Below, piece after piece: positions 12,842 to 58,300 of a stretch of 64,000 nucleotides of DNA (position 1 is the stretch's first letter; the number at the start of each line of letters is the position of its first letter). The notes beneath the pieces are model-generated. The model saw only the letters and a program-made list of their open reading frames with translations. It was not told the origin of the DNA and did no database searches. Source of the DNA: Marsupella aquatica (lineage: Eukaryota; Plantae; Marchantiophyta). The translations under genes were made by a program, and so were the position numbers. The stretch covers positions 4,910,071 to 4,974,070 of the forward strand of contig OZ316893.1 in assembly GCA_973895155.1 (NCBI GenBank). The letters are read 5' to 3'.

Positions 12842-13125
12842 CTCGGGGTTTTCATTTTCACAAAAATAACATATCACATGCGACAAACGATGAGGTCATT
12901 TTATTGGTTCTAAGAGAAGACTTAAAAAATTTCTCAAAAAAATTAAGATATTTCAAATCCAATTCTAAAACTTATAAGTATATTATAGTTTTTAATGTTT
13001 GGGGGAATACTCCAGAAATATTCCAATTTTATAGGGGTTAACATATATATATTACATTTTAAGGGGTCTGAGGCCTAAAACTGTTGCAGGTGATGGGGAG
13101 GCCTCCATATAGTGAGACCCCCGAG
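12842..13125 (+). mobile_element. 284 bp MITE of the CTCGGGGG-TIR (P-like) family
   Basis: Left end ctcggggttttcatt. Right end ggtgatggggaggcctccatatagtgagacccccgag is nearly identical to 57694-57730. Flanks tttggaaa / tttggagt (6/8 TSD match). Confidence 0.85.
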
Positions 13126-17958: not shown

Positions 17959-20379
17959 GGATCACTACACCGTACATTTCGTTGCCAGAACATGCTAGTT
18001 CATACTCGCGATGACAATGAACCTCATATCTAACTACTGACACTAACATACAGTACAGAGTCTGCTACTACATCATCTCATGCTTCCAGGACACCAAATC
18101 CCTGGACGGTCGGAGGGCATGAACGGCAGTCCCAATCGGCAGAACATCACCACGTGCGGAGAGCACGAACAAGCTTCTCACAGGCGTGGTGAAGGGAACT
18201 TGGGAGGGTCATCCTAGGGGAGAAAGGTCACCGTCATACTTGGCCTTAGTGACGAGGTTCAGCAGAGGAGAGGACCAAGGATAGACAAAGACAGACTTTG
18301 CATATCCATGACCAAAAGAGCACGAGCTTCCTTCCCCACACACACTTGCTCGACGGGAATTGCGAGGATATGTCACATTTGCACACCGTCGGCAATCTAC
18401 CTGCCTATTTATTGTACAGACTACAGAGCGGCAGAACCGAGGAGACCTCAAACGGCCATCACTCGTCGCACACAACGATTGTCTGGAAGAGGATACGTGG
18501 CAATGCACGAACAACAATGACCTTGTCTCCTATTTGGAGAAAAGGAGGAGTATTCCTGGTGTCTACAAAGCAAATGCAGACTGCTCGTGCAAAACACGAT
18601 GCTTCTCGATTCCTCCCCATGGCCTACTGACGGAGTCACGGACCCAAGGATTGCAATCTGCACAATTGCGTCCAAGTTCTTTTGGATACTGTTTTATTTT
18701 GTTTTAAATATTTTTAATTAATGAATAAGTAAATATCTGAGTTTTTATATATCCGTTTTTAAGTAATTTTCCACTAAATATGTTTTAATTCCTTGGAATC
18801 TAAATATGTTTTAATTGAAGATAATGTTATCTTTTTTTTTGGTATTTATATAAATGACATATTTTTTATATGACAAGTTTACCAAGGTAACTAGAGAAAC
18901 TATATATGGAAATCATTTTTGTAGATACAAAAATAATCATGACAATATTGTAAATTCAAAGATCTCATAGTGGCAATGTATGTAAAAGCTGATTTATAAA
19001 AATATTAGATTTTAATAATTTTCCATTTTCCATTTTATGAATTGAATTGAATTAAGTCCAGAAACTCCATGGATAAACCAAACCTGTAGCATTCCTATTT
19101 ACCATTTGTTAAAAAAATACAATGTCAATAATGAATCATCACTTGTATCCAAATACTTCACTAACTCTGTAAGCACTTTTGTATACTTTGTAGGTGGCCA
19201 GAGGCTTTTGATTGAGAGCTTGGCTCAATTCTCCCACTACTCTTTCCCCTCCACATAGTTACTTTAACTATTTTTTAGAGTTTAATAAAAAAGATAAATT
19301 TGGGGGTGCCTTTGGTCCTTGCGGTTTGCAAGGGCTATTTCACCCACTTGCCAATTTTACCTAAACAATAATGAAACCACGTTTAGTTTCTCACGGGAGT
19401 TTGTAGTTGGGAGACATGTAGAATACACATGGGTGTTGAGGTCCACGTGCATTTTTCCCTTAGACTCTCGGTTGAGTTAGAGTTGTGGGCATGATTGCTA
19501 GAGTCGGGGCCAAACTGCTCTTGACGTTTGGGACAAGCTTTGGGACAAACTAGCTATTTGGGCCATGGACATGTTTTCGAGGCAGAGCGGTCAACCATTG
19601 ATGGATAGAAAGTGGGGAAGCTTGCCTGGGCAGTACTCTCTAGAGGGCTTGTTTTGGACAAACAGTGGGTGCCGGTCTGGGAGGTTATATCCATTGACCT
19701 ACTTACTAACGGTTGTTGAGCTTAAGGCAATACAATGGTCATGAGATTCAAGATGGGTTACTTATCAATAGAGTTGGTTACTTGTGTAGACAGTAGGGCC
19801 ATTGAGCAACAGTCGTGTTGAGGAGCGAGTGCGGCTTTGTATGGGAGGTACCGTTGGTGGTGATATATAGAGGCACCGAGTTGCTCGCCCGTGGAGTTCC
19901 GTGGAGGCATTCAAGCACCAAGGGTACTTAGGCACAAGTTGTTGGGTTTGGAGAGGGCACTCGGTGACTAGGTCCACCACTAGAGCCCTAACTAAAGGAC
20001 TATGTGCCTTTTAGGTGCAATGGGTCCCCAACTTTTGGAGCTATAAAATGATTCCAAATTCTCCTTTAGCCACACTCAAGATCTTTAGTTAATTGGATGA
20101 TAGATTAGTTTTGGTAAGAACAATCAAACTTCCCATGCAAGGTCATGTAAAACCACTTGAGACACTATCTTTAGGATGGTTAAATGTTTGATAGATTAGC
20201 TTTGAATAAAAACTACTCAAACTGGCCCCAAGGTCATGTAAAGTCACCTAAGACACTTTCAGTTTAATGGCAAAGACCTTAATGAAGCTAAGAAGTTAAT
20301 TGCAATGTCGCTCATAATAAATATCATGTAGAAAAACTCCCCAGTCCATAGGCCTACTAGAAACAAGTTTTACATGGAT

Positions 20380-29400: not shown

Positions 29401-31930
29401 GAGTCGACTTGGACCTTGCACTGTTGAGCCAGTTTCTGAAGTAAGTTCTGATTTGAACATCAAGTTTACTCGAAGAAGTTGTCAGTGACAAGTTTGAAAG
29501 ATTCAATTGAGATTCCGAAGTGATGTCGAAAAGGAAATTTCACTTTGAAGACAACTAGACCCTTGCCGTACGTCGTCAATCCATATTGGAAACTGTAGAA
29601 CTTGGCGAACATTGCAAGAGGCATTGTAAGTCCTTTCCAGAGAGCCGCTCACGCAGTGGAAAAGATTCAGAAGATATTTGAAGGGGGATTGTGCGGTTTG
29701 AGCATAGCACAAACAACAAACGTCCCACTGCGGGACAATTCATCTCGAATGCGACCTTGATATTCACATCGTCATGTCTAGCCTGGACCTCTCTTCCAGA
29801 AGAACACACATATCTGTAGCCTCAGTGTGGGAAGAAGTTTAGTGTCCAAACTTGCCTCATTCAGCTCAAGCTTCAGGTCCTGACGAACGCGTTCCATTAG
29901 AGAGCGCTCGGTTTCAGTGGGGACAAGCGGCCCGAAGCCGCCCGTACTGTCTATCACGTCCAGCCCAGTTTCATATCCCTTTCCATCACTTTCTGCGGCC
30001 TGTTCGTCGTCGTCATCAGACATTGTAGCGCCGTTTCCTGACCCCGGAGAAACTCCTATTCCAAGTGAGACCAAGACACTGAATTGCTGAGCGATTTTCA
30101 TTGTCATTAGTGCCCCTGTAGCTCCGAAGAGAATTCAAGAATAGAACTACGACGAAGCAAGATGCAAGCAAGATGCAAGCAAGATGCGTCATAACGTCTT
30201 TTCCACATTGTCAAATCAATGTTTATACTGTGCTATATTATAATCATTGGTACCACAAAGCCATGTCGCTTCTCACCAGTTAGGGTGTAGAATTGCTGCT
30301 CCAGTTCCCAGCAACCGACCATAGCTTCAGTCGCGTGCACTCTTACATGGTTCTGCAGCTGCTCCTGCATATTCAAGAGAATCGTGGCGTAGTTTCTCTA
30401 CAGACATGGAGACAAACGACTTAGTTAGCTAAATGCAAATCCCATACATTTCCATGCTAAATGGAAGCGCCAGGCGCGACCACTTGTCAAACTGTAGATC
30501 CAGCACAGAATGTTCATTCGGGTGTTCAAGTCGGATTTCTGAATTTTAAAGCTCTCCGAACTATCCTTCCGACGATCTTGGCCTTAAATCGCTTACAGTT
30601 CATATTTTTTACTTTTTTAAAAACAGGAAACTTAGGCCATGTATCCGGCCGACGACATCTCAGTAAATATCTGATGCCACAACCCCAGGAATTATTACAA
30701 TAACATATGAACTTCAGTCGTAATAATACCATGAAGTCATCGAGCTCATCTTTATCGTCAACATCTTCTCCCTCCTCAGGAACGAAGACGGAGTATTTGT
30801 CTATCACAAGCTGAGATTGATCCAGCTGTTCTTCGATGTTCGGTAGTTGGTCAACTGGGGTGGCTGTTTTGAGGCATCCAACGTGTGCTTGGACCATCTG
30901 AGCAAACAGAGGGTGTGTGAGCAGCTTTGCCTTCAGTCTCGCTTCGTGCCACTTCTTTATTCTGTCCACTGGAGGCAAGGACATGCTCTCGTCTCGCTCC
31001 TGTGGATGCTCGCCTCCTGCATTCGAAGCATTTTGGGAGCGTGCCTCGTTGCCTGTACCGCTCTCCATGTGAAGGCCTAGAATCACTCTCTGATGTTCGC
31101 TACCTACGAAACGACAGCGCATCAACTACCAAATCTTATTTCGCATTAGTAGACTCCCGGATGTTCGGGAGAGAAACAACAATCCTATTTGAAGCACGCC
31201 TCTCGGGAAGTTTTTAAATTCATTTTTTTACGCCTCGATTGGACGATGTCAATTTACCGATACAAATCTCAGCTCAAGGTTGGAAAACCTCTCGAGTTTG
31301 ATGATTGAAAGTTTTTTCACGAATTGGGTGGATCGATGCCCCTGATGAATTTCGTTGCCCACCTGGAATCTCCACGCTAGTGTCGTCTGGATGAGTTGAG
31401 CCCATCGGAACAGCAGATAACCAATCAATGTAAGGGTGGTTTGATAGAGAAGGTGAAGTCGTCTGCATGTTTCTACACATGCAATGCGCACCACTGACTC
31501 CACAAGACGAACACCATTTTCCAGACACCCGTTTCTGACCTTCGGAGACGGAAACCTGTGTCTGCTGCCTCATTAAAGCATTGCTTAGCCACGAAGGTGT
31601 GCCGACCTTGGGAAGCAGGTCATGTTTCTCTTCGTCGTCTTCGCGGAGCTGCTTGGAACTTTTGGCAGCATTCCTAGTACTATCATCAGCGATGCAGTCA
31701 GTCGCCTCGACGTCGAGACGTCGTATCCCTCTATGGTCGTCCATATCTCTCCTTCGACTCGGAGGCATCTCACAAAGGGCGAGGTCAGGCAACTGGTGCT
31801 CAGGTGTCTTCTCCAGCATGTGCCCCAGGTTGTCTGGGTCTGCTGCCATTCTTTGCGAGTATCTTGAGCTCTCCCACAGCTCTGAAAACTGCTGCAAGGA
31901 GCCGTCGTTTGCTAGATTATTGTATGCCAT
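26458..31930 (-). CDS. KNOX2: Class II KNOX (TALE homeodomain) transcription factor
   Basis: Exons 31930-31363, 31103-30730, 30397-30277, 30055-29856, 28932-28798 and 26601-26458. KNOX1/2 domains ([43 protein letters not shown]), class [25 protein letters not shown], and homeodomain [34 protein letters not shown]. Confidence 0.95.
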
Positions 31931-34036: not shown

Positions 34037-37000
34037 TCAGATTCCTCTGGCTGAAGTGGGCAAGACAAAGATGTGGCACATGTTATTCTTTGAGGGGTAA
34101 TTTGACAAAATTTTGCAATGTTCATTGCAATAAAAGATGTTTGAATTTATAATAGTGTCACTGTTTTTGTTGTATTTATAAAAATGACACACTTTCCTTA
34201 TATAGCTCCCCTGTTAACTTCAGGGAACTTGTCATCCATATACAAAATAGTGACATTTTATATAAATACAAAAACATTTATCAATATAAAAAACAACCAT
34301 GGTAATATTGTCATTAGAACATCTTTATGACAAAGTAATTAAAAGCATCTTTAGTAACAAAGTAATTACGGACCCCACTAGAGGTCCCTTCCAAAATTCC
34401 TGACTCCACAGCATGCCACATCATCATGGCGCGCTGCAAATAGGAACGGATTGGTTTCTACAATGAAATTATGCCAACATTCGTGTTTGCGGCAAGATTT
34501 TGGTAAAATTGAGGACACCATGCCGTAAACCTTGATGTAAAAATTTATCAAAAATAACTGTTTTATTTACCGTGAGTAGGCTTTCAACTCAGTTTTATTT
34601 ACCCCGCTTAACCAACTGTCCACCCTTTTTTTTGAATTGTAATTCAATTGTAATTAAAGTAATGAAGCAACACTTTAATTACAATGGCAGTTAAGAATCC
34701 TGAGCATGGCAGTTAAGAATCCATGGTAGTTAAGAATCCTGTTTCTGCAGCGCCAGAAGGTCATTTCTGTCTAGCACTCCTTCTCTAGCAATCTGTATTC
34801 CGGCATTGTCGTTTCCTTGTGTCGTGCTCATGGACAGAAGAATTATATGACGAACAAATTCAGCTTGTGAAGTAGGCAATTACTGAGAAGGAAATACCAA
34901 ACATTGCTCCACAACTTGATGCAGCTTAGTGAGCGTTGCCCTACTTTTCTTGGAGTGGAGATCCGAATCGGTAACAAACGAAAGAACATAACAATTTCAT
35001 AAGGACAAAACGAGCACACTAACTGCACCATCGCTCTTGTGGGTTCTTATAGATCCAATCTATTACACAGGCTCGTATTTCAGGAGTTCATAAAGGAGGC
35101 AACTTGAAATCAAAGACCAGTCTGCATGTAGGACTTCAAATTGTATCTTCATATCTGGTTTTTGAAAGGGAAGAGCTGACCAAGTGCTCCATTGCACCAA
35201 ACAGAGCTCGGCTTGATTTGGCAGTAAAAAATACTATCTAGCAATTGATAGACCAGGGCTCTACAAGTTTCTACGAGCACAGTCGATGCCTTTTCATGAT
35301 CAAATTGAAAATATTAGAAGTGAAGCTGACTTGAGAGATCACTTGATAAGGACGCGGATCATTATTGGAGCGAACAGAAGTAGCGACTCTGTCAAATGCA
35401 TCGACCCTCAAGAGGCGCGTTTGCAAGAGGCTGTGATAAAAAGGATTGTGTTTAAAGAGACATTCAGATATGGATAAAGGATTTTGATGAAATCATCTGG
35501 GAGTTCCAGGGTGAGAGGTCAATGTGGTTATTGTGAGGAAGAAGGAACGGAAATTAAGAGATGAGGAACTCGGGGCGGAGGAGTAGGTTTGGCTACTGAA
35601 AGGCGAAAAAGATTGAAAGATTTAGGTGACGATTAGAGCTGTTTGGGAGACAGTAGCGGGAATGCATTTGTTAAAGTTCAGGAGAGAAACGGTCTAATGT
35701 GACTTCTGTGATGAGAAGAATTGGATTGAAAACTGATAGATAATGTGAATGGGTCGTAAGGAATCGGGAAGTGTAATGGAGAAGATAGGGGTCCACAAAC
35801 TAATTAAAAGCTTAAATGAAACGAACATGCTGAAATGAAAACATTTTGAGTGATGAGATGATTCCTACTGTCTTGAGGCCTGATTGGCCAGACGTCCAGG
35901 TAAGTTTCTGACTGATGGCAGGTGGTGCCACTCCTGTCATTCAATCCAACAAACAGCATTCCTGGCCTGAATGACGTGATACCTTTATGTGAAGCTTTAT
36001 TTTGGTGGATCATCTTCAAGGCCATTGCAAACTAAAGCCCTCCCCAAATCAAACATGAAGCATTGTTTTGCAGCAGGGTAATTATCAAATGTAGCCAAAG
36101 TAGAGGTCCTAGCTCTCACATCCTCATCCGTCCTTTGCAAAATGGTTATCACATCCCACCCGTCCTGGATGGATTCAAGTGGCTCTCAAAATCGATCTCC
36201 ATCAATCCTCGAGTTTGAATGGTGGCCCTCATGTCTCCATCGATCAGTCATTGCTTCATTGGAAGAAAGCTCTGACTCTCATCTTCTCATGATCAGTCCT
36301 CCAAATCCACATCTAAACTATTCCATCAGAAGTTCCAACGAAGATTTCGAAATCCGTTTGTTGGGCATGGCCCTAGAACCTCGATCCAGGTGCACATCAC
36401 CTGTAGTACGAATGGTGCATCATGTCAAAAGTTTAATTTGACGTCACAGGCCCTGATTCTTTGAGTTATTTGTTAGGCGCACTCGTATGATACAGATTCA
36501 TTAGACAGTACTACGCCTTCCAGGTGCACATCTCAATCATATCTTCAAACAGAGTAGAGAATGGCCGTAAATTGAACTAAGTTGACAACAAATAGCAGAA
36601 ACCATTTATCCAGCCTACTGGTAGGGTGGTGCATTTTTTAACCCGGTCTGGGGTCTTCATGTTAATGAGTGCAAAAACGGAATTGGACCAAGAACTTTCT
36701 GGCCTGTGCATGTGATTCAACTGTGTCCTTGGCTTCCTTTCAGTGGGTTTCGTTTATTGTTGTTTCTATTCAAACATCGTGCTTCAATTTCGTTTATAGC
36801 AGACTGAATAGAACTTGCACATAAAATAGAGAAGCAAATTGTATTCTCTCGGGACTATCGGTCGGAACGAAGCTTGAAAAGATAATTATGCAAGAGCATT
36901 CGATCCTTTAGTTGCATTAGAATTGAGTGCCTTGTGGTGAGGACTGTAAACCGAGGAAGCATTTCAACCAAACTATAAATGAGGACTGACTGTCAGCCGA

Positions 37001-44230: not shown

Positions 44231-46849
44231 GTTTTGTGTACTTTTGACCAAGTTATGGTTCATGTTTTGCATTCACTCGCATATTATGTGTATCACAAGA
44301 CTCATTGTCAATGTTTTGCCGCACACATATACAAGGGTTACAACAAAGGGGTATTTTCTGTTATTATTCATCATTTTCCAAGAGAGGTACAACATTCAGA
44401 TCGATATTGACATTCATGTCAATATCTCTACCACCCCCTCCAAGATGAATAACACGGTTTGGAACTACTGGCAAGGACGAATTAGCAGTCCTTCGCCGCC
44501 GCTTGCCTTCCTGATATTGTAGTCCTATCCTACATAGATGTTGTCTGTTAGATTCCCTAGTTACTTTACGCTTTGAAGGCAGTGCACATGGCAGCGGGCG
44601 TTCATCACATTGTATAGATGGTGCGTGAGTTCCCTGCCCTCTCTTGCCCCCATGGTAAATATCTATAACCCCCAAGTGACGCTTAGATTTCAGCCCTATA
44701 GGCCTTACAAATACATCTGCAGGACCTATATTGGCCTTCCCTGAAAGCACTTTCATTTGTTGTTGAGCTTTGAGTTTGGTGAGTGTGACTTGTGATGCCA
44801 AGAATGCTTGTTCTGTGAGGTAGTCATCTCCTTCAACAATAGCCAATTGCTGATCAAAAAGGTGGATTAAGTTCGCCCTCATATTTGGCTCTCTATTCTG
44901 AACAGCTATAGTAGAGTGTTGTAAAATCTGAATCATTGACAATTACAGTAAGATGCTGCTAACAAACATTGGCAGAACATATTAAACAAAGGTGCAGAAC
45001 ATAAACTTAAACTTACGCCGTCAACGTGAACATGTGTAGAACATAAACCTCAACAAACGCCGTCAACATGAACATGTGTAGAACATATAAACCGCAACAA
45101 ACGCCGTCAACATGAACATGTGTAGAACATAAACTTAAATAAACTCTGTAAACTTAAAGCCAGAGAGATTTGCAAAACATGAACCTGTTCAGGTTGTTGG
45201 TTGATGTCTGTGTCCTCATGGACTCCGGTTGGTTGTCCTCCTTCCGACTCTGTTTCTTCGTGTTGAAGCAGTTCCAAATGGTCAATGCCACCCATCTGAG
45301 TACCAAACCTGGACCCTAATTGTTGTACTAGAACACCTCCATCGAAGCCTCTAAATAAGAGAGCCTTAATCTGATGTTTACACATATTTCCCTCATCTGC
45401 CCATTTACAATCACAGGAAGGAAAGTTCGAGAATATATTTCGAACAATGTGCTCCTTCCCATCAGGCTTGGCACTTCTTACTATTGCCTGGTTGGGCAGG
45501 CTCGGATCAGGAAAATAGACTTTGTGGAATTTCATGGCATGCATGGCCTTGTGGAGGCTATTGAGGACAACCTCTTCCTTTTTGCAATTGATGACTCTCC
45601 CCCTTGCTTTGCACCGAAGCTGGTACCAAAAGAAAGGAAGCATAACCTGGAACAAAGAAGTGACAACCCTGTCTAGATGCAGAGCTCCAATGGACCCAAT
45701 ATTCCTCTTGATCATCTTCTTCAATGTTAAATGCCAAGCTTCAATTGCACCATTTGTATTCTGGTTGGCTCGAGGCATGTCTCGAACAGCCCTCATCCAC
45801 TTTGCTATGATTCCACAAATGCATAAAAACAATAATTAGGTGTCATCATGAGAAAACTGCCAAGAAATATGCTTGACTCATCGCAAGGAAAAATGAGTAG
45901 GAGGTCGGGCAGAACATGAACCTGTTCTGTGCATCCAAGTGTCTTCAAAATAAGCTAGGAATCGTTGTTCCATGTGGTACTTTGCTTGGAAGGATCGCCA
46001 CTTAACTTGCATGTCTTCCTCAGTATTGGCATACATGAGATCCCCCAATACATCGATTCATATCCAGAAGCTTGGTTCTATTTGGTACAGTCTTGATCAA
46101 ATTCTCCTTCCAAGCTCTGTATACACAAACACGTAAGTGGGTTGGGCAGAACATGAACTTCATAGGTCGAGTTACAAATGTGGTAACATTACTTGCAACA
46201 CAAAATGTTTGACATGTGGAAGAACATACCGTCGAACATGCCAACTGCAAAAATAAATGGGGATATCGGGAAAGACAACTTTCAATGCGCTGACTTCAGC
46301 CTGAGCACAGTCAATAATGAAGCAGCCTCGGGGGTCTCACTCCGCGAAAACAGCACATCATGTGCGAGAAAGTATAGGGTCCATTTATTAGATTATAGGA
46401 AAGACTTAAGAAGATTTGTGTAAGAACAATAGGGTCCAATTTATTCATAAACACACTTTAAAGAATGATAGGATTTTTTGGGGGGGTCCACTTCCATGGA
46501 ATGGGTTGAGGAAAGATAGGGTAATATGCTACAAGTAAAAAGAGTATACACGTGTCACTATGGGATTGGGCCACGTGGCACTCATTTCAAATTAGGGGCT
46601 ACTCAATCGGGTAGTCCACATATTTGAGGTGGCAAGAATTTTGGATGGGGTATATACGTGAGTGGGGCCGGGTTCTCGGCCGGGTTTCAAGGATAACGCC
46701 ACATGTCTAGGGTTTTGGGGCCCGGGACCATTTTGAATATGTCCCATGTTAGGGCGGTTGTTTCCCACCACTCTTTGTTGGCCAAGCCCAGTTCATTCCT
46801 TGCCTTGACGTTGTCCAATATAGCATACTCATCCTGGAACATGAAAAGT

Positions 46850-48620
46850 TATTTTGTCCTATGCAGGAGATAAAAAAGTTCCCTATGCAATGGGGCAAGG
46901 GGATACCCCTATGCAGGAGATAAAAAAGTTCCCTATGCAATGGGGCAAGGGGAGGGGTATCCAATGCAATGGGGCAAGGGGATGGGTATCCAATGCGAGG
47001 GGTATCCAATGCAGTGGGGGCAAGGGGAAGGGCTCGCGAAGGGCAAGGGGTCGACGAGAAGGGGCTGGCGCAGGTCAAAGGGCTGGCGAAGGGCGAAGGG
47101 CTGGGGAAGGGCTCGCAAATGGCTGGAAGGGCTCGCGAAGGGTTGGGGTTTAGACGATCAAATCCTAGGGGGCAAAGGGCGGCTGCGGCTCTCGATCTGA
47201 TGTGAGTCGCTGTCTTGATCGATAGAGGCTCACAATAGAGGCTCGCGAGCTTGGTGGACTGCACTTCATGCTGCTCGTTTGATTTGATGCTACTCGTCTG
47301 ATTTGATTTTGTCTTCACTCTCGATGCTGCTTGTCTGATTTGATTTTGTCTTCACTTTCGATGCTGCTCGTCTGATTTGATCTCGCTGTCTGATCTTGCG
47401 AGCTGGGCTTGGGAGCTGGAGGCTGGGAGCGATCGATAGAGGCTCGCGAGCTTGGTGGCTGCTGGCTTGGTGGCTGGAGCTTGGTGGCTGGAGCTTGGTG
47501 GAAGCTCGCTGTCTGATCTCGCGAGCTGGAGGCTGGGAGCGATCGATAGAGGCTCCCGAGCTTGGTGGCTGCTGGCTTGGTGGACCATATAGCAATGTCG
47601 GTAATTTTTTTTAAACTCCAAAGGGAGTGTTGCCTGCGCTGCTAACGGGAGTGTGGTCCAAAGCAAGTGTTGCACAGCACCATGAGCTATTGCAAGGGAG
47701 TCAAGGGAGCCAAGGATGGTGAGTGCTGAGTGTTCCACTCCTGCACTGCTGCCGGGAGCTATTGCTTTGTGAGGATTGCGAGGGAGGTGAAAGCTGTGCT
47801 GTGAGGGAGGCGAGTGAGGCGCTACGAGGGAGGCGCTACGAGGGAGGCAAAAGCTACGCTGTAAGGGAGGCGCTACGAGGGAGGCGACAGAGGTGAGTGC
47901 TGCACTATGATCAAGGGAACTCAAGTGCTGCGCTGTGAAGGAGGTGAGTGCTGCGCTGTGAGGGAGGCAAGCTAGGGTCAGAGTGCTCCGCTGTGAGGGT
48001 TGCAAGTGCTGCGCTGCTTGCTCAAACGGAGTGCTGCTCTATCAACTCTGGTATGGGAGTGCTCTTCATTTCTTGCTTTGACAATCAGGCTTTCTATGGA
48101 TTGAAGTCATGTTCCAAATTGTAGGCTTAGTCAAGAGGAAGTAAGTTGCTTGCTTTGTTTTTGCTTCTCACTTTTTGCTGATTGAGATGAAGTGCTTTCA
48201 ATCAGTTGCAGTTGGGCTGCGAGGTGGGCTACAAGGTGGGCTGCGATCGGGTTGGGAGGTGGGCTGCGATCGGGTTGGGAGTTGGGCTGCAATCTAGTTA
48301 CTAGGCTGCGACCTGAGCTGGGCTGCATTGTGTTGCAATCTGTGAGTTGCATTGCCTGCAATCCGGTCCGGAGCTGAGCTACATTGCTGCTGCAATCAAG
48401 TGCTCTTGGACTGCTGTTGCGGTTGAGGCTGTTGGAGGATTGTTGCTGCGATTGAGGCTGGTGCTGAACTGCTATGATTCAGAGCTATTGGTGAGAGACT
48501 GAGCTTCCCTTGTTGAGCTACGTTGCTATGTTGAGCTACATTACTTGACCTGGTACTTTGCGCTGCGAGGTGGGTTGCGATCAAGTTCAGAGTTGTGCTG
48601 CAATCTGGTTGAGCTGGGCG
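46850..48620. repeat. GC-rich mosaic of short tandem repeats in the left arm of the P-like element
   Basis: cctatgcaggagataaaaaagttccctatgcaatggggcaagggg x2, atcgatagaggctc x3, gagggaggc units and gggctgcga units. Confidence 0.8.
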
Positions 48621-49282
48621 GGTTTCTATGGCAACTGTGTCCCAAAATTGCATGCTTACTAGTCTGGACCAGGCTCTGGACACTACATCGAAACTTGTTT
48701 TGCTTAGCTATCAATTTTGTAAGGACTAGGTCACACATCTCTGTGCGAAAGTGTGTTCATGTTGGGAAATTTTGACCAGAACTTGCTGCTGGATAGTTCT
48801 TATTGAATGATTCAGTTCACCCTCAAGTAGTTGCAGGAGTACAGGCAAAGCAAGGGGCTGTTGAGGAGCACCTATCTTTATGCTGCTGCAACCTCTGCTA
48901 AAATGTTGAGTTGAGGTATAGTACGGGACCTATGCTGGTATTAAATTTTAGGTCTGTCATTTCCATCCATGACTTCAACCATTTCTAGTCGTGCAGAAGT
49001 TTATTTAGCTTCAAATGTTGTAGGGGAATTCTAATGTAGTCCATGAAGTTAATTTTGACATGTGGGCAATGTTGCTTCTATTCACCAGAGTTGATGTTGA
49101 GCTGCTGGGCGGATCAAACTCTTTTTGAAGTGTGGTGCCCGGAGACGTTGTGAGATTCTTTAGGTCTGTCGAACGCAGAGGCAGTTGAGGTGTTGCCCCA
49201 TTCTGATTACTTGTAGACATTGTTACTTGTAGACATTGTTACTTGTAGACATTGTTAATTCATCATTACAAAAAACACTATC

Positions 49283-49666
49283 ATGGCTATATTGAAGAAT
49301 TATGAGAAGCTCCTTTTGCAGCATCGAGACGAATGCTACTGGTGTGAATCTTGTGTCAAGTGCAGGGTTGGCAATGGCAATTTTGAATGGTTCCATTGCT
49401 TTTGCTTGAAAATGCACGGAAGACTTGTTACTAGGACATACATGGCAAAGAACGGCAAAGTTGTCACACACCGCTGGAAGTGCTCTTGTATAAGGCCAAC
49501 CATTTGGCCTCAAAATGAGTGTCTTTTACGCAAGATTGTCATCCCAGACACGCTTGACATTGTAGTCCTTGATAGTATTCCACATATAACTGAGCTTGAT
49601 ATTGTAGCCCCAGATAGTATTCCAGATCAAGCTAAGGTTAGAGCCCATGGATGCTTGACATTGTAG
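49283..49666 (+). CDS. Cys/His-rich ORF of unknown function inside the P-like element
   Basis: 127 aa ORF with CYWCESCVKC, HCFC and WKCSC. No recognised family. Confidence 0.35.
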   Translation: MAILKNYEKLLLQHRDECYWCESCVKCRVGNGNFEWFHCFCLKMHGRLVTRTYMAKNGKVVTHRWKCSCIRPTIWPQNECLLRKIVIPDTLDIVVLDSIPHITELDIVAPDSIPDQAKVRAHGCLTL

Positions 49667-50051
49667 TCCTTGATAGTACATGGATGCGTTGTTCATATAT
49701 GACTAGGCCTTTGTTTGCAAGGCTGCAATTGTACTATCCATGATATATGAGAATATTTTTCATTCCCATTATGTGGCAAGTTTCGCAAGCTGGCATTGTA
49801 TTTATGTATGTCTTGGTTTGGTCTGTGTTCAGGTTGCACTGTGTAGTTGACTTCATCTGGGAGGGAGGTTTGCAGATCGTTGGAGCAGGTGCTATGATTA
49901 ACCTTATCTTTGTCTATGGATTGCCGACTATCATACATATCCCCCTCATATGTGATGTGCTTTGTGATGATTGCAGTTGTAACCATGCCGACAAGGATTC
50001 AAACATGAAGCAACATAGTCCTCTGACAAAGGAGCCTCTTTAGAAGAGGTA

Positions 50052-50654
50052 TTGTGTATTCTGTTGTTCTCTGAGCAAGAGATTCTACAAACTAGCCCTC
50101 ATGTTTGTGCAATTTGTGAGCATGGTGGGAAGTTGGTAATTTGTGATGGGCCATGTCACAGGCAATTTCATTATGTGGTTGGAGATGAAGCCCCTAATGA
50201 CTCTTGCCCCTGTGTAGTCCTTCCCCTCCATCATGGAGGGAAGCCATGGTTTTGCCCAAATTGTAACCAGGACCAGGCCATGTGTTATGGGTGCCGCACT
50301 GTGGGACTGTCACCTACAATTGTGCGAAAATGCTCTGATCGTTTTTGTGTACGATTTTATTGCTTTGGGTGTTTGGTAGCCGATGCAAAGTCCTGCCCAT
50401 TGCATACATGTGTGACATGTTATCAGAGTCTTGAGGGTCAGATGGTCAAGAACATGGTACAATGTCTACGATGTCCAAATGCCTGGCATACAGATTGTCT
50501 CCAGATGATCAAAAGCAAAGGGTTTGCTCATGATAGGGACATTTGGGAACATGAAGCACATGGACAACAGTGACAAATGTTTTATTGCCCCCGTCATCCT
50601 ATTGATCCACACCTCAAGACTCCAATCAGGGACCACATTTCATGGCTCCAATGA
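50052..50654 (+). pseudogene. EDM2/NSD-type atypical PHD-finger cluster carried by the P-like element (one in-frame stop)
   Basis: CAICEHGGKLVICDGPCHRQFH..WFCPNC..CYGC..C..RFCVRFY..CPLHTCVTC..CLRCPNAWHTDCL. After TGA 50571 the frame continues QMFYCPRHPIDPHLKTPIRDHI, matching the recalled EDM2 PHD-module tail (YCxxHxIDxxLxTPxRDH). Confidence 0.8.
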
Positions 50655-53600
50655 TCTGAATAATGAACGAACCTATTACTTAGGTTTCAACGTCGTAGTG
50701 GGGTATGAGCAAGGCAAATACTTAAGCTGCATCATGGGTGGTAGTACCCAATTTTATTAGTGTTGACATTTTGTCATAATTAAGGTCACTAATAGTGCTG
50801 CATTTTGATGAGCAGAAGCACTAAACCTTGGGAACTGTTAGAAAACCAGGCGAAAAGGATATTTTGTCCAAAGATATTTTATCCAACTTTAACGGTATAT
50901 CATGATTTTCACTGAATACATTTGCATGTATGATGGATTGCATTATAAAGTGTTTTGGCCTATTAGCACTTCTTTTGTTAAAAGTATGCTGACAGTATGT
51001 ATATTACATGAGAATGTGTATGTTGTCGTTGCATCTCTTGAAGATCCTAATGTGTTTGCATTGTGTGTATTTCAAATGTATTTGTGCAGGTCTTTTTGTT
51101 ATCGACTCCAAAAGCAATTGTGCTATGCATGTTCTAGATTTGTATTGCAATGGCAGCCCCTAAACCCAACTCTGTGAAATTGATACGCAAAGTTGGGGAT
51201 GACAAGGCTGATTTACCAATCTGTGTTTTGTCATTCAAAGAAGGACACACCCTACATGATTTTAGGGCTCGTATTGGCTCTACTCTAGACTTTGACTTTG
51301 ATTTTTGGGATGAGAGACTTCCTGGTCGAGTGAAACCTGTACATGAGAAATTAATTGATCTGTCTGAGCTGGATGGAAGAGTTATTGTTGTACAACAAGA
51401 ACTTGGAGATGGTGGGAGCCCGGGTGGGAGGATCCCACCAATACCCTGTCATCCTTGCACTCCTGCATCATTGGGTCCGAATACTGGGACACCACAATTG
51501 GGGCCAACAGCACCAGCACCCTCCCCTGTAAGGGCTTCTTTTGAGTCACAATTGATGGGAGATGTTCCATCAAAGCTATGGAAAGATGAGTGGATGAGGT
51601 TAGAGAAATGGGCACATAAGAAGGGTTATGGTGATCACAATTGGAGAATTCGTACCTGGGATGAGGGGACAGATGTTCGAGGGCATCTGGAGTGTCTTGA
51701 ATGTAGGGAAACTTATGGCAATGTAGACAACTCTCAGAACCCTAAATCCATCTCCAATTGCTTTAGTAATTTTAAGACCAAACACTTGGTCTTCAATAAG
51801 CACAAGGATAACTATTGTCGGAGAAGGGGCATTCCTTCTACTTTGGTTCAGGTAGCAGACATCTCTGAGAAGCCAGAATATGATCATGCAGACGCCATCA
51901 AAGTAGGCGTTGAGATAGTTCAGCGATTGAATGCGGAGCTTGGGGATGATGGCAAACTATTCTCTATTGTTCCTGATCCCAGTACTCCTGAGTGTGCAAA
52001 CAGGTCTTTCCTGTTTAAGGTTCGCTGTACTGTCTGTGGAATGCTTCACACTGACTTGTGCCCCAAGAAGCTTACCTTGGAGCCCAATTTGAGGACACAC
52101 TTAGTGAGTCAAGATCACTTGGATGCATTGGAGACGAGGCATGACACAAAAATGCTTGCCTTGAGGTCTGGGAAGAGGGGCAGGCCAAAGAGGACTGATT
52201 CTAGGGACCTACATCCTGGTCAGAGCAGGATTTTGAAGTTCTTTAAAGATGATGGGTCCCGAACAGGCAGCAGTTCAGGTTCAGGTTCAGGTGTGTGTGA
52301 ATCTGTTGATCTTGGTCTGAGTTTGCTTTGCTGGGGATTATGGGTAGAGAGAGGTGTGCCTCGAGTGTTATGGAAGGGTATATCTTATGATATTTCCGGC
52401 ATTTTGGATGATCAGTCTGGGGGCATTGCGAGCCAAGTTGTTGCTTGGATGTTTTCCATCCAAGAAGAGACTGTGTTGTGAGTATAGCAGGCTGTTTTAG
52501 ACACAAGGATTGCTTGAGGTTATCACAGAATGGAGGAGGATTTGAAAATCTAACTTGTAGTGAATGTGATTCTATAACACTAGAAGATGATTTTCGTGGA
52601 CGGGTGCACAGGGAAGCGGAAGCAGTAGTCCACAGAGGGAGCCGAACCACTGCTGGTGGTATACGATTGGATTATTTGACCAACCCAGAGTTAAGAGATC
52701 AAGTGCACAAGCTGAACTCTGTGCGACGAAGAGAGCGTTGGTTGTTAGCTTTGCAAGCTCAGAAAGTATGTGCCTTGAGCACCAGGAAAAGAAAACTAGA
52801 GGAGTTGTTAGGAGTTGCAGCAGACAGGAAGGATTTGAGATTGTTTCTTAGGAGTATTTTGAATGGACACAGGAATGGTGCATTTGGTGGTAAGGAGGTT
52901 TTGTGGGATTTCTTGAAGGATGTAGCTCGCAATTTAGGCAGGAAGCCAAAAGGTAATTGGTACAATAATAGGACTCGAGCTATTGCTCAGGCTATGTTCC
53001 AATTTGGGGGCCGTCAAGTTGCTCATTGTTTTGCACGAAACTTGACAGCCCCTAGCCTTGTGACCCTAAAACGTGATAGAGCAAAACTCACACCTTTTCG
53101 AACTGGGTTACGGAAGGAAACCTTTCAGAAGATCGCTAGAGTGTTGTCTGCTGCAAAGCACTCATTGGGCATTGAGGGGGATGTGCCTGTTATCTTTGCT
53201 GAGGATGAAACAAGGATCAAAGAACACCCTAGGTAATTGGAACTGGACATTTTTCCAATTGTTTTTTTAATGACTTTACAAGTAGCACTTGGCTGGAATT
53301 GCTCTGATATTGAAAATTTGCATGTCTGTGTTTCAGGTGGGAGGCAAAGTATGATACTCTCATTGGTTTCTGTGGACCTTCAGAGCAGCATGTATGCTCC
53401 TATGGTTTGGAAATTCTAGTTGGTGAAGGTGATGAGGGGTATGATAAAATTGTAAGTACATTTGAACAATGCCCCAAGTGCATGTATGCTCGAGTTGTGA
53501 TTGTGAATCCTCTGCATGAGTCCTTACCTAAATTGGCTGTGTGTGCACTTCCAACTTGTAATAAGTTCACAAATTCTTGGGTACGAGAGCATTGGGTCCA

Positions 53601-53738
53601 GTTAAAGGCTTTTGGGGATGAATATTGTAGAGCTATGGTAGGCTCTTTGCTTGGACATGCTAGTGATGGTGATGCACGTCGCCGGAAGTTGATGCTGGAA
53701 GATTACAGAGGGCAGAATGGATCATACCCAAGGTACGG

Positions 53739-54883
53739 TGTCGTGATTTTCTCTTAAGTTATAAAAAATTGTTTTAATATGCTATAGATTATATAAGTAA
53801 TTTAGTAGTTAGATTATTAAATTTAGATTTTATTAAAACTCTTTAGCTATATTAACGGACTATGGTAGTTCCACCAATGCATATGAGTAGTTCCACCAAC
53901 TACAATAATATTCACCAACACATAGTAGTTCTACCAACGCACAGTAAGTCCATCAGCGCATAGTAGTTTTACTAACGCACAATAGTTTTACCAACGCACA
54001 GTAGGTCCACCAACGCATAGTAGTTCCACCAACTCATGGTAGTTTCACCTACTAAAAGTAGTTTCACCAACTATGAACAGTACTAGCACACTCTTTGGTA
54101 TTAGATGTTTGACACTTGGCCTTCATCCAAGTGTTTGGGATTGATCCATGCCCTCTTGGTGTGCACTATAAATAAAGTGGTGAGGGGCACTCTCCCCTCA
54201 TTCCGCAGTGTTTATCATTCAAGGTTGTGAAGCTCTTTTGTGCCTTGAACATAGTAGTGGGGCGTTCTTTGGCCCGGATAGCAAAGGAATGAGTGGTAGA
54301 CTTATAGATGGGACCTTAGGGAATAAGGTTTCTTTGGGAATATAGGGGTGGGGCGTTCTTTGGCCCGGATAGCAAAGGAATAGGAGAGCCATCATGAAGA
54401 GAGTTATCCCTGATCTTCCCCTTCGTAATCTATTTTTGATTAGAGTCCATCTTTTAGACAAACCATCTATGAGGCAACATCTAACCTATCATTTTGGAGC
54501 TCAGTTTGCAACTGCTGTTATGGTTTCTAACGAGCCAATAATATACCCAGTGGTGTCGTACCGAGAGGAGTGGGAGTGCATCATCTTTGTCCTTTATTGA
54601 AGTCATGGATCTGAATAGGAGTCCGGATAATATTCCTGTTTCATTTTCTCTTGGAGATATTAGAATCATATGTCGTAAGAAAACTAATTTTCGTGATGTG
54701 TTGGTCCGCAAGTATGGTGAAGTAGGGTTTAAAAGTATTTTAATTTCACCTGAACCTTTCTTAATACCCACTACCCTTGTTACTAGAATTATTATTTTGA
54801 TTTTAGTGTAGAACTTATGAGCATGCAAGGTTAACTTCAAAAGAGCCAACATGCTCTTGCCAGAAAATACGGTCACCCGAACA
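53739..54883 (+). mobile_element. Solo LTR (1145 bp) inserted in the P-like transposase
   Basis: TGTCGTGA..TCACCCGAACA termini, 4 bp TSD ACGG, TATAAATA at about 54167 and internal tagttccaccaac repeats. Excision gives the in-frame YPRYGVGWEGW. Confidence 0.88.
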
Positions 54884-55148
54884 ACGGAGTTGGGTGGGAA
54901 GGGTGGGCTTACTCTGCTTCAATTCTACCAAATGGGGATTTGTATGGCTTTGGTGACCAAGACCAACCTCATAATGGGAAAAAGATGATAAACCCCTTAG
55001 ACAAAGTGTCTTCTTTACTGGTGCTAGGAGATCAACATGCATCTTTATCTTATGTAGCTAATGTCTACAATCATTATCCAATTCATGAACATGGCATGGC
55101 TTGGGATGATGTGAATAGGACTGACCGGCAGAATTGGGTAGGTCCACA

Positions 55149-55393
55149 CTCGGGGGGGTCACTTCCATGAAAGTGGCATATCATGTGCGACGAAGTATAG
55201 GGCCATTTAAATGGTTTTGGCGGAAGACTTATTAAGTCTTCTATGGAAATATAGGGTTGTTTAATTGCAAAATGCATACGTGTCATCACATGATTGGTGT
55301 CGTACAACTTTCTAGAAAGTGACTTAGGGGGGTCATAAATGACCCAAACCGTCGCACGTGATGGATGACCCTTCATATAGTGACCCCCCCGAG
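55149..55393 (+). mobile_element. 245 bp MITE of the same CTCGGGGG-TIR family inserted in the family transposase
   Basis: TIR CTCGGGGGGGTCACT / AGTGACCCCCCCGAG, exact 8 bp TSD GGTCCACA. Excision gives the in-frame NWVGPQRIAARR. Confidence 0.93.
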
Positions 55394-58300
55394 GGTCCAC
55401 AACGAATAGCAGCAAGAAGAGTGCAGCAATGTCTGAAAGATATGTATGAGAGGAGAGATATACGACATGAACGAAGTTTAGGAACTCAGTTGTACTTGGA
55501 GATTTGTGCAGATTACTTAGATATTTTCTTTTCTCCAATTCATGACTTGAGGTCCCGTATTGTGTTAGCATCCAAGGTTTCGTTCTTTCTACGTTTGTGG
55601 AGATTGTGGTTGAGGTTTGGTGACCATTCAGTGGGTGGGAACTTTGCAGCACACACTGAGAAAGACATGATGTCTATTCAGGCCTTTCATGATGTTAACA
55701 TGTCATGTCATTTCATTGTGCTGTTAATTTGTGCCTTTCGAGATAAGTTCCCACATCTAGGTGTTCCCTTTCACTTGTTAGGTTTGGATTGTTGTGAGAT
55801 TTTCTTCAGCAAGGTAGGAGGCATGAGTGGCCATGAGCAAAATTATGATTTTGGCTCTCTGTTGGATAGTGCTGTTGGACTGAACCGGCTTGCTGCCCTG
55901 GAATATGGACCAGAAGGCTTGAAGATAGGTTGTTCACATAAGAAGCGAGATCATGTATGGGGGAAGATTCATCCTATAGGGGGAGGGGAGGAAGCACCAA
56001 ATCTACTTGACTATTCTTTCATTGAGACTAATGAATTAGTGGTTGCAGCCCTTAAAGAAGGTTTTGTTGCTGCTAAGGATCTTATGCATCAATTGCAGAT
56101 GTCTCCACGAAGTTCCTTACCAACAGCTAGAAAGAGATGGTGGACATGTCCTTGGGTTGTGGAAAGTGAGACCTGGCCACTAGAGGTGGTTCTGAAGGAA
56201 GCAGTTGTTTGCAATGATTCTGAGGAGCAAGTAGAGCACCAACCACCAGACATAGGCCCTCGCCCAACTAGAGAATTTCATGAATTGGAAGATCCTGAGG
56301 ATGATCTGAATAGAATAGATGCATGGTTAACAGAACCAGATCCCATTGTTATTCCTGACATGCATTCAGATGATGTACACAAAGATGATATACAGTTTGA
56401 TGTCGACCCCATAGATGAGCTTGAGACATTAGGCCATGAAGTTCGGCATGTGTTTGGATCAGTTGTCCATGTTGTAACTAATGTGCAGAATCATACCAAG
56501 GTAGTGCCTACTATTACTTATGAAGGCAAGGTGATTTACAAATCCACTCTGGTAAGCCAGCTGGTAGGCAATCCACATTTGTCAAAAGATAGGCTGACAA
56601 GGGTGAAACAAGTGCTATACTATAGTACTGGCAAGAGAAAAGTGCAAGAAGCCAATCCTAACTCATGTTTTGTTGATGTTGGCACTGATTGTGCAATTGC
56701 ATTTGAGTCTGATGATAATCCTGCTCCAAGTACTAGATCTGGAAAAAAAAGGGAGGAAAGAATAAGGCTGCGATGGAGGCAATCTCAACAGGTAATAAAT
56801 ATTTTTGGTTGGGTCGGATTGTCCAAATGAGACAAAAGTATGGTAGTAGGTGGGGCAATTGTCGGACACCAATTGATTTAATGGATAGGCCCACTCCACT
56901 TGCAGGGCAATCAGGTAGCATTTGTGAACTGTTGTTAAATTGGTATAGTCCTATTGGTAAGAGCAAAAGTGAATTCAGATATGATACCACTGATTTGAAA
57001 TGGATGGATATTGAAATGGTCATTGCTAGTGTTAGCTTAACCATGAAAGAAGGGGTTATGGATCGTATCTATGTCTTGGATCCAATAGATAGACATGCAT
57101 TGGATCAGTATCTTCAAACAATGGTATGAATGTTATGCTATTGTTTACTTTTTGAGAGTATATATATTTTATTTTGTTTATATTAGTGGGTGTAGTGGGA
57201 TAGGATAGGGGGTGACGGATTGGCAACTTGAGATCCTTTCTCAATTAGGGGTTCAATTCCCCTCCGTCACATGTTACATCTCTCAGCAGAAGTTTTCAAT
57301 GGAGTATGGATGGAGTATGTGATTGGTTTCAAATTGATTGTTGATGGAATGGATTATTCATGTTGTGACCTTAAGGCCATCCCACTTATGTACACAATAT
57401 TGGGATGACCTTTAGGTACACAATATAAATGATGCATTGAAATGATGAAAGTTTGAGGTCGAAAAAGGCGCAAGAACTGTTGCAGGGCGTGCCATGTTTG
57501 ACATACGACTTCACAAGGTACTGGCATAGACTTATCTTTTCTTTCTAGGCATTTTTTATTGATATGTGACACTTTACTTCACAAATTATAGGGGCAATAT
57601 AAATTGGATTTTAGACTCTTAGAAGAAAGAAAGGGGGAGGAAACAAAAATTTCAACTTAATAAGTATGGGGGTCTAGGCATGAAAACGTCGCAGGTGATG
57701 GGGGGTCCTCCATATAGTGAGACCCCCGAGGAAGCAGCTAGGACTCCAATCAGGTTTGTGCTCCAAGGCTGTATCCTTCATTGCCTTCAAAAAAGTAGCG
57801 ATGTGCTCAGCTGATTCAGACTGCTGGATGCACCATGCTATGGGTAATCCCATCTGGTGTTGATCAAAAGCAACGAGCGTGAAGAAAGGGAACTACAACC
57901 GCACTGGGGTTAGAAAGGCAGAACATGAACTAGAAGACAAATAATGAACTCAAGTACATTGTGTAGTGACATGGCAGAACATGAACTACAAGACATCAAA
58001 TGAAATAGGTCACATGGCAGAACATGAACTATAATACTAGAAACAAAATATATGAAGAGCAGAACATGAACTATAATAGAAGGGATAGACACAACAAAAC
58101 ATATGAAGATGGCAGAACATGAACTTCAACAAAGATACAAAATGAAGTCGCATGGTCAAATAGGTGTGATGGGCAGAACATGAACCATAATTGAAGGAAC
58201 AGACACAAGAAAACATATGAAGATGGCAAAACATGAACTAGAAGACATGGAATGCAATGAAATGGAGATCTTGAGGAGATGAAATGCTAATTACATACCC

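Follow-up and report, generated by a model that had tools for sequence, protein, structure and literature searches.

A stand-alone EDM2-related PHD gene inside a DNA transposon of the liverwort Marsupella aquatica

We find that a decayed, probably P-like DNA transposon of Marsupella aquatica carries, beside its transposase, a free-standing gene for an EDM2/NSD-type triple-PHD protein. The element lies in a stretch of 64,000 nucleotides (contig OZ316893.1, positions 4,910,071 to 4,974,070), hereafter the window, to whose first letter all positions refer. We are confident of the ends of the element, the homology of the PHD gene, its presence in related copies, its membership of an old, separate clade and the signs of constraint on its protein. 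That the P-like family carries a conserved, EDM2-related PHD gene of ~220 residues whose product is a chromatin adaptor for the transposase is our leading, though still tentative, reading.

The element and its PHD gene

The transposon occupies positions 46327–57730 (+; 11,404 bp). Its 15-bp terminal inverted repeats (TIRs), CTCGGGGGTCTCACT at 46327–46341 (+) and the right-hand one at 57716–57730 (−), and the 8-bp target site duplication (TSD) GAAGCAGC, at 46319–46326 and again at 57731–57738, were read in the sequence. The empty site was found in contigs of public sequencing runs (X1 and X3), where position 46318 is joined to 57731 and eight letters fit either flank. The insertion splits the transposase of a host MULE (39636–60455, −; 282-bp TIRs, 98% complementary), in which Pfam detects SWIM (E 2e-4) and MULE (E 6e-4) domains, both weakly. 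A first-pass annotation made from the letters alone had recognised this insertion into another transposable element, and rightly so, but had also taken it as fitting an insertion steered to heterochromatin; as a single case in a repeat-rich window, it says almost nothing on that point.

Two further insertions are nested in the element itself. One, a TG...CA insertion of 1145 bp at 53739–54883, solo-LTR-like and with a 4-bp duplication, is skipped by contigs of X1 and X5 and is foreign to the P-like family. The other, a 245-bp MITE at 55149–55393 within the transposase gene, has an 8-bp TSD (GGTCCACA) and TIRs related to those of the large element, belongs to the same lineage, and is skipped by contigs of all four runs. 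Another MITE of 284 bp, at 12842–13125, has ends related to the P-like TIRs and a degenerate 8-bp duplication, and over its final 63 bp it shares 87% identity with the right end of the P-like element. The left subterminal region of the element (46800–48450) consists of short tandem repeats and varies among copies, since its contig cover is far below that of the coding part. About 8.5 kb from the left end of the MULE lies an exon of a KNOX homeobox gene (30529–31125, −; KNOX1 domain, E 5e-14), flanked by the arms of an inverted repeat (18870–18972 and 34128–34235; 72–78% complementary, 15 kb apart) that are possibly old transposon ends.

The PHD gene (49985–50654, +; about 222 codons in a single coding exon) is broken in this copy. 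It lies within the TIRs, on the same strand as the transposase and 495 bp upstream of the transposase ATG at 51150. The frame at 50019–50654 (+) is Cys/His-rich, can be read without an intron along its whole length, and ends in a TGA stop (50652–50654) directly after an EDM2-like tail. The start is most likely the ATG at 49985, because the homologues open with a basic stretch about 35–45 residues before PHD1. Against Pfam, the frame matches PHDvar_NSD above the cut-off (E 6e-8), and PHD-1st_NSD (E 1.5e-5) and PHD (E 7e-4) below it. The module is also matched by NSD2 (658–795; E 4e-6) and by NSD3, while EDM2 proteins match the profile of the PHD family with an E of 7.5e-24. Capsicum EDM2 aligns with the window protein collinearly from PHD1 to the tail, with 31% identity over 228 columns (pairwise E 5e-24). 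Five EDM2-type rows share 26 Cys/His columns, 25 of which persist in all seven family rows (the window protein and six others). The predicted structure is of modest confidence (pLDDT 60), and its best fold matches, all weak, are tandem PHDs: NSD3 (E 0.04), Ehd3 and NSD2 (both Z 4.1). The annotation had described an intronless Cys/His module laid out as the EDM2 cluster down to the tail, inside the TIRs and about 500 bp 5' of the transposase on its strand, and had made its case depend on homology to the EDM2/NSD PHDs; placement, layout and homology are all borne out.

The window protein thus shares with the plant EDM2 family, Arabidopsis EDM2 included, a triple atypical PHD module collinear up to the C-terminal tail. 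Judged by its sequence, however, it is not an EDM2. It consists of a basic N-terminus and three PHD-type fingers only, without the RFD, the acidic stretch before PHD1 or the C-terminal region. It also lacks a 20-residue segment of PHD2 and has one His replaced by Cys. The family proteins (213–245 aa, around 220) have PHD matches only, whereas EDM2s have 1000–1300 residues; one named EDM2, P0011, has 1302 and contains PF12047 (RFD). Further, the window gene lies in a transposon, and the stand-alone proteins form a clade of their own on a long branch.

Upstream of the PHD gene lies a short open frame (49283–49663, +), also Cys/His-rich, covered by contigs of the runs and showing the pattern EWFH-x2-C...W-x-C. 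It had no match in Pfam, only an E of 0.18 to the Yng1 PHD, nothing in the Atlas at 0.9 and 0 matches among viral contigs. It might represent another cargo gene, or a PHD that has decayed.

A probably P-like transposase and a separate PHD protein

The transposase gene (51150–57129, +) was delimited by collinear tblastn of the 1520-aa homologue P0196 and contains one intron near 53233–53336. It is damaged by frame breaks near 52421 and 56742, in addition to the two nested insertions. Members of the P superfamily have short TIRs with a TSD of 7–8 bp, a combination shared with hAT elements, and a DDE core whose second D is followed by D-x2-H. Here the ends consist of a 15-bp TIR and an 8-bp TSD with an empty site, and the related MITE has an 8-bp TSD too. 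In the coding sequence the motifs AEDET (53198), HASDGD (53656), DQPHNGKK (within 54955–54984) and DCCEIFFS (55787) follow each other in the order D, D, D-x2-H, E, their catalytic roles (those of AEDET, HASDGD, DQPH and DCCEIFFS) being given by pattern only. PF21787, the P-type RNase H, is detected in one of 17 transposase homologues (E 9e-8), in a region 37% identical to P0196. The transposase matched none of the PDB sequences, a structural comparison of its low-confidence model (pLDDT 42.7) gave no meaningful match, and no THAP domain was found by Pfam in the N-terminal frames, which do contain Cys/His clusters. The P-like label of the first annotation is therefore kept as probable, on the TSD, the motif order and the PF21787 homologue.

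Of 55 homologues of the transposase, 29 are named as proteins of Riccia, a liverwort that also provides the nearest named ones; Adiantum and an arthropod are represented as well. No stand-alone PHD match is named Riccia among the 22 candidates, so the transposase lineage, which extends beyond all hosts named for the PHD gene, may transpose without it. A beta-rich C-terminal domain (56794–57126, +) is conserved in seven aligned homologues; by eye it looks BAH-like, but neither PDB nor Pfam supports this. Genome contigs gave a single match to the transposase (L003:329-1677, 42% identity), a fragment from a 2.1-kb contig assigned to an archaeal MAG; it is most likely a binning contaminant.

The PHD product is evidently a separate protein, because its stop is conserved and searches in both directions found no fusion: none of 55 transposase homologues contains the PHD module, and none of 165 PHD matches contains the transposase. 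Both lines speak against a PHD-transposase fusion, the search among long proteins being weak evidence in itself, and support a stand-alone accessory gene, as first proposed.

Related copies and relatives of the PHD gene

Three lesions break the gene in the window: the ATG at 49985 is out of frame with the module, and stops occur at 50016–50018 (TAG) and 50571–50573 (TGA). In contigs of related copies the first letter of each stop is C throughout the aligned depth (in four of four runs for the TAG and in the three runs that cover the site for the TGA), which restores sense codons; both stops are therefore peculiar to this copy. This copy of the element is dead.

The PHD stretch is contained in six of the ten runs listed, from 3 organism labels and 4 studies, none of them holding at least half of its words; in all four runs that were aligned (again 3 labels, 4 studies) the gene is covered by contigs. 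A single X1 contig extends over 50094–50647 at a depth of 1636, against 2007 for the transposase contig and 35 and 342 for the contigs of the empty MULE site. The PHD gene thus tracks the transposase, not the flank, in contig depth, a quantity distinct from copy number. In X5 contigs tile from the PHD gene at least as far as 50680, and a single one covers 50719–55656.

X3 and X5 also contain a second subfamily, which is separated from the majority by 7 synonymous and 9 replacement changes within 173 bp. The corresponding omega is 0.33–0.44, with p between 0.04 and 0.11 depending on how transitions are weighted. With 16 changes in all, a close-range omega below 1 is only suggestive of constraint on the PHD protein. 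In comparisons with L001 and L002, dS ranges from 1.65 to saturated, and dN is 0.35–0.54. Contrary to what a neutral module confined to this copy would give, the gene recurs in all four runs, and its dN lies well below dS.

Protein searches returned seven stand-alone relatives of 213–239 aa (45–80% identity) among 22 candidates, and further ones came from the best 150 of 609 profile matches; 21 proteins were assigned to the family by eye, P0006 and P0009 being near-identical and P0028 being the protein of locus L002; P0002 and P0003 are examples of naturally intact members. The conserved C-terminal tail (HISW) and the stop are kept in 12 of the 21 and missing from nine, some of which may be contig ends. 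In a quick tree of the 62 rows (out of 143) that had enough coverage, all 13 family rows fall on one branch. A more careful tree of 25 rows gives the family clade a support of 99/97 and a branch length of 1.8, and places it outside all 15 EDM2-type rows; the outgroups are long-branched, and no EDM2 lineage can be named as donor. On these trees, the stand-alone family is an old, diverged clade on a long branch from the host EDM2s. In a separate, EDM2-like clade (P0010, P0024, P0025, P0031, P0058 and P0063, one of them named Riccia) the PHD module lies at or near the C-terminus.

Within the first 30 residues, the pattern M-x(0-3)-[ATS]-R occurs in 15 of the 21 family proteins, compared with 13 of 143 other PHD matches and one of 55 transposase matches; seven of the 21 start with M[AT]R. 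This M-[ATS]-R or A-R-x-K-like motif is similar to the first residues of histone H3, but may be merely part of a nuclear signal. Several long EDM2-family proteins also begin with MAR[TVA], unlike seed-plant EDM2.

Possible roles and related systems

According to the reading that we prefer, the PHD module would have been captured anciently from an EDM2-family host gene, whose other domains were then lost. The protein would be imported into the nucleus by means of its basic N-terminus, bind H3 tails as EDM2 does, and contact the transposase, tethering it to nucleosomes through histone H3 tails. This contact would confer element specificity on a reader without a DNA-binding domain, and its outcome could be either access to silenced donor ends or the choice of target chromatin. 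Since the protein contains neither an effector nor a DNA-binding part, it would need a partner in order to benefit its own element, and the transposase is the obvious one. There is precedent for readers that guide mobile elements (PMC6673714; bioRxiv 2021.11.30.470311), though the known ones are mostly fused to the integrase and are not separate proteins. Against this reading, NSD-type PHDs serve also as protein-protein surfaces (PMC4838375). In the window family the acidic stretch that precedes PHD1 in EDM2 is replaced, so the mark that is read may differ, or there may be none.

Somewhat less probable, in our estimation, is the lead idea of the first annotation, that the protein counteracts silencing, either by competing with host silencing readers on H3K9me chromatin or by recruiting machinery of the ASI1/AIPP1 type, so that full-length transposase mRNA is made. 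EDM2 binds H3K9me-marked H3 (H3K9me2, in the AAE complex), works with ASI1 and AIPP1, and promotes full-length transcripts through heterochromatin (PMC9910501, PMC6208443 and PMC7529245); VANC, the separate anti-silencing gene of MuDR elements, probably originated as a captured host chromatin protein (PMC13547354). The element is CpG-depleted and so has been methylated, and all the evidence for conservation fits this explanation equally well. Only the PHD module was kept, however, the RFD and about 850 C-terminal residues being gone, and a protein without a DNA-binding part would have no element-specific effect; moreover, EDM2 acts on transposons in both directions (PMC3632883 and PMC7529245). 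Because the protein has no RFD, acidic stretch or C-terminal region, transcript protection of the EDM2 kind should not be assumed. Our preference for the adaptor over anti-silencing is a matter of reasoning, not of data.

A broader version of these ideas, which we consider rather unlikely, would make a widespread non-seed-plant P-like lineage a two-gene system. It would anciently have taken the reader module of host heterochromatin read-through and would use it in trans, for docking the transposase on silenced chromatin or for keeping transcripts whole. In this version the conserved A-R-x-K-like N-tail, which some long EDM2-family proteins share, would gate the reader by mimicking a histone.

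It seems improbable that the stand-alone PHDs are a small host gene family of which this transposon family alone carries one member as a passenger. Residence of the gene in a transposon was observed in the window family and its close relatives only: at two distant loci that were fetched (1867 and 1495 bp; 2 of 63 pattern matches, from one metagenome scan) tblastn against the window found no transposase, both loci being short. Other short EDM2-like proteins do occur among the matches, and the deep dN/dS, in comparison with L001 and L002, would then reflect host selection. Against this, both fetched loci are broken and nine of the 21 proteins lack the C-terminus (again with possible contig ends among them), a decay typical of mobile copies, and the diverged subfamily occurs in the same runs with its omega below 1. 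In addition, the PHD gene and the transposase are CpG-depleted to the same degree (observed/expected 0.23 and 0.24–0.33), unlike the host KNOX exon (0.90), and this fits a long residence in methylated DNA.

A Pack-type event in which this copy or the family recently took up part of an EDM2 exon that then evolved neutrally is largely refuted and very improbable: the three breaks in this copy would suit it, but instead of a neutral fragment close to its host donor we find an intronless gene with its own conserved start and stop, separated by a long branch from every EDM2 sampled, with relatives at 45–80% identity, other copies free of the stops and an omega below 1. Viral contigs gave 0 matches for the PHD protein and 0 for the transposase.

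Comparable arrangements are known. VANC of VANDAL/MuDR elements, derived from MAIN-like proteins, is likewise carried by a plant DNA transposon as a separate accessory gene, kept across copies and probably a repurposed host chromatin protein; it is an unrelated protein, however, and is a sequence-specific anti-silencer of demonstrated function, whereas the window gene encodes a predicted histone reader in a P-like element (PMC13547354). Retroelements have captured chromodomains, MBD and PHD (PMC6673714), and 823 fusions of readers or enzymes with transposon domains are reported across eukaryotes (bioRxiv 2021.11.30.470311). In chromoviral chromodomains, CopiaMBD and CR1-type PHDs the captured reader is proposed to guide insertion or to evade silencing, as might be the case here, but these are mostly fused and in retroelements, while the window gene is free-standing, triple, EDM2-type and in a DNA transposon (both sources). 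The TET/JBP DNA transposons of fungi also have an epigenetic cargo gene inside the TIRs beside the transposase; there the cargo is an enzyme and the superfamilies are others, and 'PHD' occurs 0 times in that text (PMC12730594). RAG1/RAG2 similarly pairs a transposase-type enzyme with a separate H3-reading PHD partner, although transposase and PHD are of other types and the partnership in the window element is only hypothesised (PMC5175335).

The capture of readers by transposons is therefore well described, and the first annotation's suggestion of an undescribed system has to be narrowed, transposon-borne chromatin readers being known as a class. In the full-text literature that we searched, whose scope leaves out most subscription papers, Repbase and the supplementary fusion table of bioRxiv 2021.11.30.470311, we found no DNA transposon described as carrying an EDM2-type PHD gene, and a free-standing one in a P-like element appears, within that literature, to be a new combination. 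If the protein does read histones for its element, a DNA transposon would be using a heterochromatin-reading module of its host as a free-standing gene, and such reuse would reach beyond seed plants and beyond the MuDR/VANC system. For studies of structure and binding, the window family offers the EDM2 PHD module in a compact, naturally occurring form, and it provides a testable way into the question of how cut-and-paste elements face H3K9-methylated chromatin.
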